Source: Promethearchaeia archaeon
GTDB lineage: Archaea > Asgardarchaeota > Lokiarchaeia > Sigyniarchaeales > SOKP01
NCBI GenBank assembly: GCA_029856155.1
Contig: JAHQWL010000034.1
Coordinates: 1 to 47,248 of the forward strand
Direction: 5' to 3'
Length of the DNA: 47,248 bases
In this document: one piece after another, positions 25,394-30,419 of the stretch
Layout: every line of letters starts with the position of its first letter
How positions within the stretch are numbered: position 1 is the stretch's first letter
The notes under the pieces: generated by a model
Database searches by the model: none
Told to the model about the DNA's origin: nothing
What the model saw: only the letters and a program-made list of their open reading frames with translations
Program-made: the position numbers and the translations under genes

Positions 25394-25990
25394 TTATTTT
25401 ACAGAAATATCTTCTCTTTCCCAATTTTGTAAATACATATTAAATTCTTCCAAACTTATCTGACGCGGTATTTTAATTTGTTTTTTTGCCTCTAATTTCC
25501 TTATTTTAAAAATTAATTTTTTATTTTTTCGGTAAAATTTCTCTGCTTTTGGATATTCTTCTTTAAAAATTTCCTTCAATTTTTCAATATCTAAATTCTC
25601 TAATTCAGAATAATATTCAATAACAAAATTACATAGAGGATCTATCGATATCTCAAAATTAAAAGCATCTATGCGTTTCAATGCTAAAGGGTATGCTTGA
25701 CAAGCTAAAGGTTTAGTATCATGTACTGTACAACCATATGATTTAATATAATACGGACATCCTTTATTTTCATTATCTAATTTTATGCGATAAGTCAAAA
25801 TCAATATTTTCTTATTCTTAATATCTGGAAACACTAAATCTTCGACAATTTTAAAGGCAATGTTGCGTTCCTTTGCAATCTCAATTAATTTATCTGCCTC
25901 ATCTGGATATATAGGAATTCTTTTTACATAGTCACCTGGAACTTCATGACAACATGTACCGCACATTTTACATTTATAATTTAATGACAT
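25394..25990 (-). CDS. YkgJ-family cysteine-cluster protein (CxxCxxCC)
   Basis: CKMCGTCC...CPYY...CTVHDTKPLACQAYP...C. Confidence 0.9.
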   Translation of the reverse strand: MSLNYKCKMCGTCCHEVPGDYVKRIPIYPDEADKLIEIAKERNIAFKIVEDLVFPDIKNKKILILTYRIKLDNENKGCPYYIKSYGCTVHDTKPLACQAYPLALKRIDAFNFEISIDPLCNFVIEYYSELENLDIEKLKEIFKEEYPKAEKFYRKNKKLIFKIRKLEAKKQIKIPRQISLEEFNMYLQNWEREDISVK

Positions 25991-26178
25991 TATGCAAATT
26001 GATATTTTTTACTTAGATTTATAATGTTTTTTTCTAAAATTAATTTTCGGTAAAATGATTTAGATATATCAATTTCTTCTATTTAAACAGTAAGAATCTA
26101 AAAACTCAGGAAATTATAAGAATAAAAGTAAAAAAAATTGAAATATTCTTTATTTGATTAATAGGCTTTTTAATAGCA

Positions 26179-26292
26179 TTAAGGTCCTCCACCATCGCCT
26201 TTCCAACCTAACACAATACTCATCATAGGCAAAATGAAAGCAATGTTGGCTAATACAAATAAAAGAATCCTATATACTTTAAATATTTTCAA
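26179..26292 (-). CDS. 37-aa signal-peptide-like precursor 1: MKIFKVYRILLFVLANIAFILPMMSIVLGWKGDGGGP
   Basis: TTG start, TAA stop; 24/37 identical to the paralog with no indels; TATA box TTTAAATA 57 nt upstream. Confidence 0.8.
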   Translation of the reverse strand: MKIFKVYRILLFVLANIAFILPMMSIVLGWKGDGGGP

Positions 26293-26348
26293 ATTAATTA
26301 TCTTTTTATTAATTGAAATGAATTTATGTCCTTTTTTCTATATTATTC

Positions 26349-26356
26349 TATTTAAA
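26349..26356 (-). promoter_or_regulatory. TATA box (TTTAAATA) of peptide gene 1
   Basis: Consensus archaeal TATA at the same distance from the start codon as in unit 2. Confidence 0.65.
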
Positions 26357-26445
26357 CCGAAATAATCTAAAGATCCAAGGAATTATAAAAATAAATTTAA
26401 AAAAATATTTGAAATATTCTTTATTTGATTAATAGGCTTTTTGTT

Positions 26446-26559
26446 TTATGGTCCTCCACCACTTCCATTATACCCTAATACAATGCTAACCATAGGTAAA
26501 AAGGAAGCAATGCCGATTAATACAAATAAAGCAACTCTATATAACTTTAATAATTTCAA
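26446..26559 (-). CDS. 37-aa signal-peptide-like precursor 2: MKLLKLYRVALFVLIGIASFLPMVSIVLGYNGSGGGP
   Basis: TTG start preceded by AAGGT, TAA stop; paralog of 26179-26292. Confidence 0.8.
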   Translation of the reverse strand: MKLLKLYRVALFVLIGIASFLPMVSIVLGYNGSGGGP

Positions 26560-26615
26560 AATTGTAACCTTTTTTGTAAATGAAATGAATTTATGCCATT
26601 TTTTCTATACTATTC

Positions 26616-26623
26616 TATTTAAA
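26616..26623 (-). promoter_or_regulatory. TATA box (TTTAAATA) of peptide gene 2
   Basis: Consensus archaeal TATA 57 nt upstream of the TTG. Confidence 0.65.
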
Positions 26624-26771
26624 CAGAAAGAATTTTCTATATTTACAAAATAAATAAATCAATTTTTTTTTTAAAAAGAAATATTTTATTCAATTCAAAA
26701 GGAGTTCCGATGAAAAAGTTTAAAAAGTAAATTACTGCATATTAAATTCAGGACAAAAATTAAATAACAAA

Positions 26772-29700
26772 TTGGTAAATTTGGTTAATTCTCCTAATTT
26801 AGATAGCTTGAAAAAATCTGTTATTGATGACCCTATTAGGATAAATCAAGTATTCCTTTCTCTAATAAATGAGTTAAGAGCTTATTTAAATTTGGAAGTA
26901 ATCAATAGGAAAGTAAGAATCCATATTGTCGATGAAATAATAAAAAGTATAGATTTTGATTCAAGATTATCTAGCTATGGGGTATTTAGATTTATTAAAG
27001 AGGGTGTATATCAAATTCAACTCTTTAGGGATTATAGTAAATTCTTTCCTTTCTTATTACTTCAAAGTGCGTATCTAGTTTTTATTCCTGATAATTTAAA
27101 AGAAACCAATCTCATTAATTTTGCTATTAACCAATTTGTTGAAATTGATTTACAAGAATTTACATCAATTAACGAATGGAAGTCATTTATAAGAGAAAAA
27201 TATCTAAATTACAATTTTCTAGTTAATCAATCTGATAAATTTCGGTTTGACAAATTTCTTGAATTAGAAGAAAGTCAATTAATTGAAAGTCCGAAACAAT
27301 ACTTTTTTGAATATATTAGAAGAAATCTAAACTTAAATTATGCTGATAATTTACATTTTACCCTTGGAAAAATATACGAAGATTTTTTATTTAAATCTTC
27401 AAAAAGTTTACAGGATAATGAGATCACCGAAACTCTAAAAGTTTTAACCAAAATTTTCTATAGTGTAAAAAATTGTGATACTTTGGAAGGATTTTGTAAT
27501 AATTTTAAGTCTCTTAAAAATCAGGGGGTCATCGATACCGATTTAAGTTTGCGGAGATTTAGCAAAAACTTACGTTGGATAAATAAATATAGTTTTATAA
27601 CCCCAACATATTATTTTGATTGGAAAGCACTAAATATTGCTCTTTTAACATGCTATCTTAAATTTAATCCACTTTTAGAAAAAGCTCAAATTGACAAGAT
27701 AATTAACCAAATGCCATTCATAATTATGCCAAAACTTTCAGTAGCTAATTTTTCTATAGAATTATCGGCATATTTTGTCATTCCAGAGAGATATATAGAA
27801 GATTTGAAATACCTGTTAGAAAAAATGGAACAAAATGGATATTTGATAAAAAAATTTTGTTCGTTAGCAAAAAAATATGTTTTTTCCTTGAATTTAAATT
27901 ATTTTAGAGAATCTTATAAAAATGGTCAAATAATAAATTATAACAAGAAGAACTACTCAAATGACTATGAACTTGAATTTATACAGGAGTATAGTAAAAA
28001 TTTTAATAAAGCAAATCTTAAACTCTTAGATTTTTTAATTCTGGATAGAATAAGATTCTTTTCCTATGTCGGAATAAACTTTTCAAGAAGAAGGGAAATT
28101 TCAAATATAATAAAATCCGATTATAATAACTTTTTCTCTGGTGAAAATGGTTTAACTAAAGAATTAGAAAATAGTTTAGAAGTTTTAATTAAGTCCCCTA
28201 AACTCCAAGAGGATTTCCTTAATTTTTTAGATAGAAATCAAAGCTTTGGATTTTTCTATATTAAGGATGAGTTAGAAAAATGGGTAAATTACTCACAGAT
28301 AATTGAAAAAGAATCGAAAGATACTATGAATGGTTTTATTAAATTCAAAGAATTTTATGAGAAAGAGCATACCTTACAATTAATTGAAGAAGATGCTATT
28401 TTCGACATTATAGATTCAAACTGCTATTCTTTCAAAAATCTTTTCTTAAATTATTTAAATTCTAAAAAAAAGTATGCAAAAGAAGTTGAAAAAATCCGAT
28501 TTTTTTTCCAATTTTTAAAATTATGCTCTAATTTAAAAATTTTTAATGTCAAATCAATTAAAAAATTAATATCTAATTTGGAATTATTAAAGGAAATTAC
28601 TCAAATAAAAAAAGAACGCCTTAGAAATTTAAAAAAAAATAATAAATGTTATGAAATAACAAATAAAACTATCAATCTCAAAATCAATGAATTTATCAAT
28701 GATAATCCTAAGATAATCAAACCTTATTTAATTGATAGTATTTGGACAAACACAATCTCAAGCTATTTTCCTCAATTAATTTTAAAGAATTCCCCTGAAG
28801 TTCAAGTCATATTAGATAAAATGAAAAAATGGTTTCCAAAAATTTATTTCTACGAAACTACAGATTTATTCAACAAACAAGAATATGTCTTCTTACAATT
28901 TTTTATCCCAAATTTGAAGAATAATGAAAAAATAATTTTCATATCAATATTATCTAATATTTTTAACAAAGATATTATCTCATTTAACCGGTATTCTTGG
29001 AATGGATTATTACAGACTTTTTCAAGAAAAGATTTTTACGATTTCAATCGGAAAGTCTTTTTCTATACTAAAGACCTTTTTGAGCAATACTTTCTTTACA
29101 TTAAAGGAATTTTGGGTGAAGAATTAAAATCATTTAAAGAAAAAAGCGTTACTTCACCCAATCTTTGGACTATAAAAAAAAATATGAAAAATCTTCTTAA
29201 TAAAATCAATAGACGAATTATAACTGAACATGTCAGTTTTAAAACAAATGATATTCAAAAATTATTAAGTTTCCATTTAAATCTTGAAAAATATTTCAGG
29301 AATAAAGAAGAATTTGAAATAACAATTAAAGAAAATTATTTCAAACAATATGTGAAATCAATAAAATTCATTCCTGCTTTCCAAAATTTTGGCTTAGGAC
29401 AATATTTATTATATATTACTCCTTTTAATTTAGAAGAAATCGATTTTAAAATGCTATTTACAAATACATTTCAAAAGATTAAACACATAGCTTCAATCGA
29501 TAGTTCAAATTCATTATTTATTAAATATATTTTTCCTTTTAACGAGCCTAACACTTCATATCTTAACTGGTTGAGAAGTAAGAATAAAATCAGAGAATAT
29601 TGCCTACTTACAATTAAATCTATATCTCAAATTTTTCATTTCAACCATAATTTAAGTTCAAATGGCTGGTATCTAGATCCTAATAATTTCAAAACCTATA

Positions 29701-30419
29701 TATTAAACATTCTTTTTAATCCAAATTATAGAGAGCAAACTTCAGATGTGAAGCATTTTGAAATTGATGATTTAATAATTTCAGATTATTATAAACCAAA
29801 TTCTCCCTATTTTAAAGCTTTATTACATGTGTACAATTGGCATTCTATTGATATTAAGAAAAAAACCAATAACCTTAACAACTCAATTTTCGATGAGATT
29901 CAAGTTTTAATTAAAAATAAACTTATCTTTCCTTACATTACTCTAAAGAATTTGGATTTGAAGGAAACTATTCATATTATTTTATTAAATCTAAAAAAAG
30001 ATACAATTGATATACTCAAATACATATTTCAGTATTTTAATTTTGGTTATATTTACGAAATTGAAGGAGAATATTATATTCACGGATTTGATGAGAAAAA
30101 AAAAATCCATAATGGGTTAATGATTAGGTTATATTTTCCGGATTGCGAACTTGCTGAATTTTTAAGACTTTTCGAATATGTGTTTCAATACTTAAAAGTT
30201 GAAAAATATTTGATAATAACTGATTTGGTTAATAGTGAGTCTCTTATCAAATCAGTTTATGGAAATAACAATTTTCTTGAAAAATACAATCCATTGCAAA
30301 ATTTAATATGGAATGGAAAAACTGAAAAGTGGGAGAACCATAAATTATTTAGTAAGACTTTTGAGTATTTATACCCTGAATTATTTTACAAAGAAAAAGA
30401 AGATTTAATGCACGTATAA
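26772..30419 (+). CDS. Large protein with about four Lrp/AsnC-like (HTH/RAM-like) modules; putative regulator
   Basis: 1215 aa; recurring pattern like PTYYFDWKALNI..CYLKF...P...LSAYFVIP, IKFIPAFQNFGLGQYLLYI...LFIKYIFP and IFPYITLKNLDLKE..IIL...GLMIRLYFP, resembling the Lrp linker plus RAM fold. Confidence 0.6.
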   Translation: MVNLVNSPNLDSLKKSVIDDPIRINQVFLSLINELRAYLNLEVINRKVRIHIVDEIIKSIDFDSRLSSYGVFRFIKEGVYQIQLFRDYSKFFPFLLLQSAYLVFIPDNLKETNLINFAINQFVEIDLQEFTSINEWKSFIREKYLNYNFLVNQSDKFRFDKFLELEESQLIESPKQYFFEYIRRNLNLNYADNLHFTLGKIYEDFLFKSSKSLQDNEITETLKVLTKIFYSVKNCDTLEGFCNNFKSLKNQGVIDTDLSLRRFSKNLRWINKYSFITPTYYFDWKALNIALLTCYLKFNPLLEKAQIDKIINQMPFIIMPKLSVANFSIELSAYFVIPERYIEDLKYLLEKMEQNGYLIKKFCSLAKKYVFSLNLNYFRESYKNGQIINYNKKNYSNDYELEFIQEYSKNFNKANLKLLDFLILDRIRFFSYVGINFSRRREISNIIKSDYNNFFSGENGLTKELENSLEVLIKSPKLQEDFLNFLDRNQSFGFFYIKDELEKWVNYSQIIEKESKDTMNGFIKFKEFYEKEHTLQLIEEDAIFDIIDSNCYSFKNLFLNYLNSKKKYAKEVEKIRFFFQFLKLCSNLKIFNVKSIKKLISNLELLKEITQIKKERLRNLKKNNKCYEITNKTINLKINEFINDNPKIIKPYLIDSIWTNTISSYFPQLILKNSPEVQVILDKMKKWFPKIYFYETTDLFNKQEYVFLQFFIPNLKNNEKIIFISILSNIFNKDIISFNRYSWNGLLQTFSRKDFYDFNRKVFFYTKDLFEQYFLYIKGILGEELKSFKEKSVTSPNLWTIKKNMKNLLNKINRRIITEHVSFKTNDIQKLLSFHLNLEKYFRNKEEFEITIKENYFKQYVKSIKFIPAFQNFGLGQYLLYITPFNLEEIDFKMLFTNTFQKIKHIASIDSSNSLFIKYIFPFNEPNTSYLNWLRSKNKIREYCLLTIKSISQIFHFNHNLSSNGWYLDPNNFKTYILNILFNPNYREQTSDVKHFEIDDLIISDYYKPNSPYFKALLHVYNWHSIDIKKKTNNLNNSIFDEIQVLIKNKLIFPYITLKNLDLKETIHIILLNLKKDTIDILKYIFQYFNFGYIYEIEGEYYIHGFDEKKKIHNGLMIRLYFPDCELAEFLRLFEYVFQYLKVEKYLIITDLVNSESLIKSVYGNNNFLEKYNPLQNLIWNGKTEKWENHKLFSKTFEYLYPELFYKEKEDLMHV

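Follow-up and report, generated by a model that had tools for sequence, protein, structure and literature searches.

Tandem genes for short peptides divergent from a giant Lrp-like protein point to a peptide-protein partnership in Loki-type archaea

Among described systems, the RRNPP and Rgg families of Firmicutes and phages (Rap-Phr, PlcR-PapR, Rgg-SHP, ComR-ComS and AimR-AimP) have the arrangement most like the one reported here. In these systems, a very short precursor gene adjoins, and is often divergent from, the gene of a cytoplasmic regulator; the C-terminal 5-10 amino acids of the precursor are active, the peptides are specific to receptor clades, and a genome can carry several variants. 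Asgard archaea are the closest known relatives of eukaryotes, and a peptide-based signalling module, whether acting between cells or within them, is to our knowledge yet to be described in archaea. A second point of comparison is the Lrp family, whose proteins bind small effectors in RAM pockets and frequently regulate their own genes (PMC2995911). Here, we describe a locus on contig JAHQWL010000034.1 of a Promethearchaeia archaeon (Asgardarchaeota; Lokiarchaeia; assembly GCA_029856155.1), of which positions 1 to 47,248, the whole stretch of 47,248 nucleotides that was analysed, are called the window. Two tandem genes for 37-amino-acid peptides lie there divergent from the gene of a giant, Lrp-like protein of 1,215 amino acids. 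The recurrence of this pairing in related genomes suggests that uncultured Loki-type (Asgard) archaea have a peptide-protein partnership not described before, and we consider it likely that peptide and giant protein are functional partners of some kind.

The two peptide genes are found on the minus strand at 26179..26292 (gene A, tail WKGDGGGP) and 26446..26559 (gene B, tail YNGSGGGP). Each has 37 codons and a TTG start, and the two are copies within a tandem duplication of about 268 bp, in which each unit consists, in order, of a TTTAAATA box, a Shine-Dalgarno-like motif, the open reading frame (ORF), a TAA stop and a 42-nt block. The TATA box TTTAAATA (26349..26356 for gene A and 26616..26623 for gene B, both minus strand) stands 64 nt 5' of each start and is invariant in all close homologues, while the Shine-Dalgarno-like AAGGT or AAGAT lies about 10 nt 5' of the start. 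The 3' blocks (26130..26171 for gene A and 26401..26442 for gene B, minus strand) end in a T-run, are likely terminators and are 95% identical between the units, compared with about 79% for the ORFs. On the plus strand, the 1,215-amino-acid ORF (26772..30419) is divergent from gene B across a gap of 212 nt, which holds a TATA-like GTTTAAAAAG (26718..26727, plus strand) within a promoter and 5' untranslated region (UTR) stretch conserved among close paralogues. A preliminary description of this DNA had proposed two minus-strand ORFs with GGGP ends, 8-residue tails that differ at three positions, a TATA box for each ORF and a head-to-head large gene, and each of these features was found as described.

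The large protein, which is predicted to be cytoplasmic, belongs to a genus-restricted family, with members in 30 of the 36 genomes sampled from the genus and in none of 24 from other genera. Within this family, the window protein falls in clade A, a group of close paralogues with 65-74% identity to it (at least 65%). A 37-amino-acid gene is present upstream, on the opposite strand, at all 12 of the clade A loci for which upstream DNA is available, and these pairs occupy at least five different genomic neighbourhoods. In the window genome (4.1 Mb in 104 contigs), a GGGP end is found in only three of 1,610 hydrophobic small ORFs, each of these three located upstream of one of the large-gene paralogues, which argues that the association of small ORF and large gene is not due to chance. 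The 3' block likewise has exactly three copies in this genome, one after each GGGP-ended ORF.

The pairing extends to distant paralogues (35-42% identity, 27 loci), at which the neighbour is a leaderless micro-gene. Clustering by BLAST of ORFs of at least 20 amino acids upstream of these genes found nothing, because the real micro-ORFs are shorter than 20 amino acids; a peptide gene of 8-14 codons is present at at least 18 of the 27 loci. The preliminary description had named a general lack of peptide genes beside the homologues as the outcome that would speak against it, and with the full set in clade A and this count among distant loci the opposite was observed. The pattern M-x(2-4)-G-[DE]-x(2-4)-stop recovers 17 ORFs at 13 of the 27 loci, all of them on the divergent strand within 700 nt and none co-directional, with 0.22 expected from the genome's own frequency. 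The commonest form is M-P-x-x-G-E-x-x-P/G, and examples include MPSTGEGGG (in the window genome), MPHAGETLP, MNFQGETVP and MFRNGDGGIP. Five more distant loci carry other types, namely a GTG-start 9-mer, three 14-mers with a P-G-G-G core and one 10-mer.

These micro-genes have the parts of independent genes. In some, the TATA box ends 20-21 nt before the ATG, consistent with a leaderless mRNA; in others, the distance is about 60 nt, and a 5' hairpin and GGAGGT follow the box. Downstream of the stop, a hairpin of clade-dependent sequence, with G.U pairs, precedes a T-rich tract. Across the genus (54 genomes), a DNA pattern for the commonest type matched 11 times and its reversed control not once. 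Nine of the matches adjoin family genes, another is a third copy at a distance of 3.7 kb and the last is an orphan in genome G002. The peptide type follows the clades of the large-protein tree, and one genome carries different peptide types beside different paralogues. Tandem duplication of the peptide gene has occurred in several clades. Almost all family members have between one and three divergent peptide genes upstream, each under its own promoter.

Two side observations concern these micro-genes. The orphan in G002 (locus L103, G002:C1:388599-388654) encodes MPRGGEIGS followed by a hairpin and adjoins a Trm5-like gene. A Trm5-like gene also flanks the large gene in G000, and G002, which is 100% complete, is without a member of the large family, suggesting a clean loss of the large gene that spared the micro-gene at the syntenic site. 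At locus L026 in G005, three tandem 10-codon ORFs (MSKSKDSSWR-like), each preceded by CTCATGGCGGTGATGG, lie on the divergent strand upstream of the large gene; they fall outside the criteria used for micro-genes and may be another micro-peptide type.

A pairing seen throughout one genus-level lineage could in principle reflect nothing more than the common descent of duplicated segments, with linkage and no function. All loci do come from such a lineage. However, the large proteins at the distant loci have diverged to 35-42% identity and the micro-genes have still kept their position and orientation, with a clade-specific sequence, and the pair recurs in different genomic contexts. We regard linkage without function as very unlikely.

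Both 37-amino-acid ORFs are very probably coding genes, judging by how they vary. Homologues were collected from 19 distinct loci, which beyond the window genome come from five genomes of the genus, one more bin and ten metagenome contigs. In different homologues the start position is filled by TTG, ATG or GTG, the variable sites are distributed 16/14/26 over the three codon positions, and the pairwise ratio of nonsynonymous to synonymous rates (dN/dS) is mostly 0.16-0.55. By segment, the corresponding ratio of proportions (pN/pS) is 0.33 for the n-region and 0.32 for the hydrophobic part (residues 2-29), 0.79 for residues 30-33 and 0.0 for the GGGP end, where a pS of 0.32 reflects synonymous changes only. 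It is the switching of start codons, the excess of third-position changes and the synonymous-only change at GGGP that mark these ORFs as coding. In the leaderless micro-genes, G5 and E6 are invariant in 14 ORFs and their codons vary (GGA/GGG/GGT and GAA/GAG).

That the conserved units are instead non-coding RNAs, with incidental ORFs, is scarcely credible in view of the start-codon switching, the codon-position bias and the purely synonymous variation at GGGP and at G5/E6. In keeping with such a proposal, conservation on the 5' and 3' sides equals or exceeds that of the ORF, the coding region may pair with the 3' block and hairpins follow the micro-gene stops, but Rfam gives no match on 25900-26850 and no covariation was found. 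In RNAalifold, TAATCAAATAAAG within the 3' block pairs with TTTTATTTGTATTA in the ORF over 13 pairs, none of them covarying. The duplex energy of coding region and 3' block has z of about -1.5 to -4 in most copies, also without covariation.

Standard resources largely pass over these genes. For instance, a collection of 15 billion proteins is without the TTG-start forms and holds one ATG-start homologue as a 'hypothetical protein'. ESM Atlas features for the 37-amino-acid peptide led to unnamed clusters only, and Pfam, NCBIfam and PADLOC returned nothing relevant for the peptides. A scan of the peptide region for bacterial-type promoters and terminators was uninformative and identified no antisense promoter. 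The sequencing runs that contain the locus are DNA only (marine-sediment and salt-marsh metagenomes), with no RNA run listed.

The flanks of the 37-codon genes have features of their own. The 3' block is nearly invariant across species (L008, L067 and L070-L072), even at single-copy loci with no downstream promoter, which makes it part of the 3' end of the peptide gene and not an operator of the next promoter. The motif TTGAAATATTC, with two mismatches allowed, occurs at chance level in the window. An ATG-start subfamily (L068, L069, L091 and L093-L099) has a 15-nt insertion in the 5'UTR, between TATA box and Shine-Dalgarno motif, which forms CCAG-N8-CTGG with an invariant stem and a variable loop. 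Between the divergent promoters, most close paralogues conserve a palindrome, CACTTAAAGTG (CACTCGAAGTG in L091), at columns ~120-135 of the alignment of clade A intergenic regions (A9); it sits in a stretch of about 70 nt that is deleted at the window locus (26560-26771). Within the ORF, Met23 is invariant in 17 of 17 distinct 37-residue forms, a tally that leaves aside two 38-residue forms (G062 and G065 C19), of which G062 has TTG, also a start codon, at this position. An internal start at codon 23, which would give a 15-residue product, was considered and not adopted, as no Shine-Dalgarno motif precedes it and the codons upstream are constrained.

The large protein is not recognised by sequence models. 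Pfam assigns no family at E<=1 to the window protein or to any of the 27 members aligned, and finds no tetratricopeptide repeat (TPR) family among them; NCBIfam and PADLOC give no match, a profile search against PDB sequences returned a chance match only, and hhalign between the four presumed modules detected no internal sequence repeat. ESM Atlas features gave a score of 0.80, which is a lead only. A profile of the C-terminal half searched against 1.84 billion proteins retrieved 210 clusters, all of its own family. Domain assignments are based on AlphaFold2 models of the two protein halves, built on the 27-sequence alignment (mean predicted local distance difference test scores of 75 and 64), and on structure comparison with Foldseek and with VIA-align, which was run both on Foldseek's list and in a Foldseek-independent search.

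Residues 215-371 (27414..27884, plus strand) model as a complete Lrp/AsnC-like module with winged helix-turn-helix (HTH) and RAM domain. Against the PDB, the first ~30 Foldseek matches are all Lrp/AsnC proteins (E from 2.6e-3, probability 1.0); VIA-align superposes 135-139 residues on whole Lrp/AsnC chains with Z 8.0-8.7, and proteins that match by shape in the ESM Atlas carry HTH_AsnC, HTH_24 and AsnC_trans_reg. The C-terminal half contains three domains of beta-alpha-beta-beta-alpha-beta order in the model. One is an ACT/RAM-like ferredoxin domain (residues 661-748, 28752..29015), with Z of at most 7.4, or 8.7 when engineered permutants of ribosomal protein S6 are counted. The other two (residues 867-1156, 29370..30239) are packed as in the double Lrp-like protein NirDL, which is the best Foldseek match of the C-terminal half, with weak scores (E 1.8e-3, Z 7.0-7.2); other double-ferredoxin proteins match too. 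The preliminary description had counted about four Lrp/AsnC modules. One of these is complete, the other three are ferredoxin- or ACT/RAM-like, and none is matched by Pfam; the HTH and RAM folds on which its proposal depended are present at residues 215-371, with further RAM/ACT-like domains beyond. The last ~100-160 residues are the most conserved part of the protein and also occur as short ORFs or fragments (G003:C20:110912-111211 among them), in one case directly after a full-length gene. Such separate ORFs could be stand-alone RAM-like proteins or debris.

At the N-terminus, residues 17-213 (26820..27410) resemble the catalytic domains of thermolysin and of M1 aminopeptidases, which align over 163-177 residues with Z 7.0-8.3. 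The preliminary description had noted neither this domain nor the leaderless peptide genes of the other clades. No HExxH-like motif is present in any of the 27 members, both metal-binding His are missing in all, and no His or Cys is invariant across them. The helix equivalent to HExxH has the sequence R-E-A-Y in most clades and Q-S-A-Y instead in clade A; 25 residues further on stands a conserved Glu, at a spacing close to the 22-23 residues of gluzincins. With mid-range Z-scores, this region is probably a degenerate, non-catalytic peptidase fold of the zincin type. As modelled, a single chain that joins a pseudo-peptidase to an Lrp module and to three ACT-like domains is a new architecture.

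These folds also bear on whether the peptides are precursors that are processed or modified, as in ribosomally synthesised and post-translationally modified peptides (RiPPs), for which the zincin-like and NirDL-like domains would make the giant protein an enzyme or scaffold. A peptidase-like fold would suit such a role, Lrp-like folds can be enzymes (NirDL, AhbA/B), and several precursor copies are typical of RiPP loci. Against it, neither HExxH nor an invariant His or Cys is found in the 27 members, and Pfam, NCBIfam and PADLOC detect no known RiPP enzyme, transporter or immunity gene conserved nearby. We consider this explanation distinctly improbable.

Across clades, the small neighbours have in common that they encode short peptides whose core is Gly-acidic or Gly-Ser and which often start with Met-Pro and end in Pro. 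The tail of the 37-amino-acid peptides fits this description: its pattern is x-x-G-D/S-G-G-G-P, over 8-9 residues, and WKGDGGGP resembles the leaderless peptide MFRNGDGGIP. This likeness suggests that the tail is the functional unit and that residues 1-29 are an added targeting segment. From it we infer that the C-terminal part is the active part; residues 1-29, in turn, look like an added export or anchor segment. In most clades, a leaderless cytoplasmic peptide of 8-14 amino acids would thus stand beside the giant protein, and in the window clade the same kind of 8-9-residue sequence would be fused behind a 29-residue basic and hydrophobic segment.

The anatomy of this segment may be that of a signal peptide, as the preliminary description had proposed from its basic n-region, h-region and V-x-G-type site. 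By inspection, all homologues have the n/h/c organisation, with a basic n-region (K2, K5 and R/K8), a stretch of 13 hydrophobic residues as far as P22, and the motif M-x-S-x-V/A-L-G, in which V/A always occupies -3 and G always -1. L11, F12, L14, M23, S25 and L28 are invariant in the 37-amino-acid peptides. The charge distribution predicts insertion N-in, C-out, and cleavage may follow the invariant V/A-x-G; the window genome encodes an archaeal signal peptidase I. One bin also holds a second, diverged copy of 44 amino acids, which keeps a GGGGGP end and V-x-G before the tail.

The hydrophobic span of 21 residues, with basic residues before it and an aromatic residue after, and its strong conservation would fit a stable transmembrane helix equally well. 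The 37-amino-acid product might then be an uncleaved single-pass membrane micro-protein, a modulator or toxin-like, that works through its helix and leaves the tail as an external stub. Invariant helix positions and the pN/pS of the hydrophobic part are in keeping with this, and tandem copies and conserved UTRs recall type I toxin loci. Yet in other clades the same position is taken by hydrophilic leaderless peptides of the same tail type, which makes the tail, and not the helix, the common element; GGGP is the most constrained part of the peptide; and neither an antisense promoter (bacterial-type scan) nor an RNA family (Rfam) was found. We see a membrane micro-protein as quite unlikely.

We favour the reading in which each giant protein has its short peptide as cognate effector. 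The peptide would be bound by the peptidase-like cleft or by a RAM-type pocket, and the giant protein would control the shared divergent promoter region through its HTH. The partner combines a peptide-cleft fold, an HTH and ACT/RAM-type ligand domains, and this mechanism is the most economical one. In the window clade, the peptide would be delivered outside the cell or displayed on it, and outside delivery would turn a private signal into a potentially public one. As a whole, with export, cleavage, binding, DNA binding and regulation all inferred, a cognate effector of a protein that controls the divergent promoter pair is a tentative proposal, to which we give somewhat less than an even chance. 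Its furthest-reaching form would make this the first ribosomal-peptide signalling in Archaea, with a dead zincin plus Lrp/ACT receptor that senses an octapeptide: an intracellular loop in most clades, and in the window clade, by way of a Sec signal, a secreted quorum-sensing-like cue in two variants from tandem genes. We think this form unlikely to hold in full.

On another reading, the peptide genes are only divergent targets of the giant protein, an Lrp-like regulator, which would not sense their products; these would act elsewhere. Lrp-type regulators commonly control neighbouring genes as well as their own (PMC2995911), both promoters lie within one conserved intergenic region, and peptide genes persist without the large gene. 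Such a reading leaves unexplained why a peptidase-like domain stands N-terminal to the HTH and why a clade-specific peptide is the sole conserved neighbour in every clade, and we hold it to be unlikely.

Several observations weigh against the cognate-effector reading. All loci are kin, so that co-occurrence partly reflects shared descent and the counts overstate independence. The structural matches are middling (Z about 7-8.7), and no sequence model recognises any domain. No micro-ORF was recognised at nine of the 27 distant loci. At a pN/pS of 0.32, the hydrophobic segment is under constraint like that of the n-region, and stronger than a disposable signal peptide would require. Peptide genes are also found without an intact partner: a leaderless one is orphaned in G002, intact ones stand beside a remnant or internally deleted large gene at three loci (G077 C15, L096 and L098), and four further peptide loci have no large gene nearby (G077 C5, G070, L094 and L097). 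The orphans are weak counter-evidence, since mutations have a 30- to 120-fold smaller target in an ORF of 30-114 nt than in a 3.6-kb gene. Finally, in one genome two paralogues that are 73-74% identical both have the tail WKGDGGGP beside them, which speaks against a specificity that is strictly one-to-one. A co-fold of residues 215-1170 with the 37-amino-acid peptide scored 0.12 (mark 0.32) and has no bearing either way.

Beyond the pair itself, the window locus has one further gene of note. A 198-amino-acid CxxCxxCC protein (PF03692) is encoded on the minus strand at 25394..25990, with a TATA box at 26080-26087, and its promoter is a third copy of the repeat's spacer and TATA part. Through this shared promoter, the gene may be co-regulated with the peptide genes. 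The PF03692 neighbour is limited to this synteny block (the window and G065 C32) and is not found at the other peptide loci, so it is treated as context. In G065 C32, the orthologue of the window's large gene (L070 8781-12437) is split by one in-frame TAA into 297 and 908 amino acids, and both peptide genes are intact.

In summary, about 20 natural peptide-protein pairs with clade-specific peptides form a defined and testable set. Some of the peptide genes have only 8-10 codons and are independent, with their own promoters and terminators, and the set appears to record how a cytoplasmic peptide evolved into one that is exported or displayed on the membrane. Should the signalling reading prove wrong, the family would still show the extent of micro-genes missed by standard annotation and define a new protein architecture. 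Literature searches brought up no description of such a system of peptide and Lrp-like giant protein.

Described systems resemble this one in parts. Residues 215-371 reproduce the whole HTH and RAM chain of ~150 amino acids of Lrp/AsnC proteins (P. furiosus LrpA, 1I1G; FL11, 2E1C; ST1022/Grp), the large gene is divergent from a small neighbour, and further RAM/ACT-like domains are present. However, the large protein has no sequence-level match to this family; the known proteins are oligomerising 15-kDa subunits, whereas here a chain of 1,200 amino acids carries a peptidase-like domain and three ferredoxin-like domains; and the effector is a free amino acid there and presumably a gene-encoded peptide here. 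The sirohaem decarboxylases NirDL and AhbA-AhbB (4CH7, 4CZD) also fuse Lrp-like modules in one chain, but they are enzymes of ~300 amino acids in haem d1 and haem synthesis, and no such pathway context exists at these loci. Zincins such as thermolysin and M1 peptidases share the N-terminal fold and a Glu spacing like that of HExxH...E helices; with both metal-binding His gone in all members, the domain here is probably not catalytic. ImmA/IrrE regulators offer a precedent for a peptidase-like (zincin) domain combined with an HTH in a regulator-like protein.

For the peptide genes, mccA, the 7-codon microcin C precursor gene, is likewise a stand-alone gene, shorter than 15 codons, whose stop is directly followed by a hairpin, but no MccB-type adenylyltransferase or export genes accompany the genes described here, and the partner is an Lrp-like giant protein. 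Type I toxin-antitoxin loci pair a small hydrophobic toxin with an overlapping antisense RNA; the 37-codon genes may recall them in their hydrophobic peptide, tandem copies and conserved UTRs, but neither an antisense promoter nor an antisense RNA was identified. RiPP loci differ, as the large protein is the only conserved neighbour here and no modifying enzyme family was matched. The arrangement of RRNPP and Rgg systems remains the closest, with the differences that most clades here are without an export segment, that the fold of the presumed receptor is zincin-, Lrp- and ACT-like and not TPR, and that the host is archaeal. A peptide with an adjacent cytoplasmic regulator is already known; what appears unprecedented, on the basis of the models, is a putative receptor of this architecture, in archaea.

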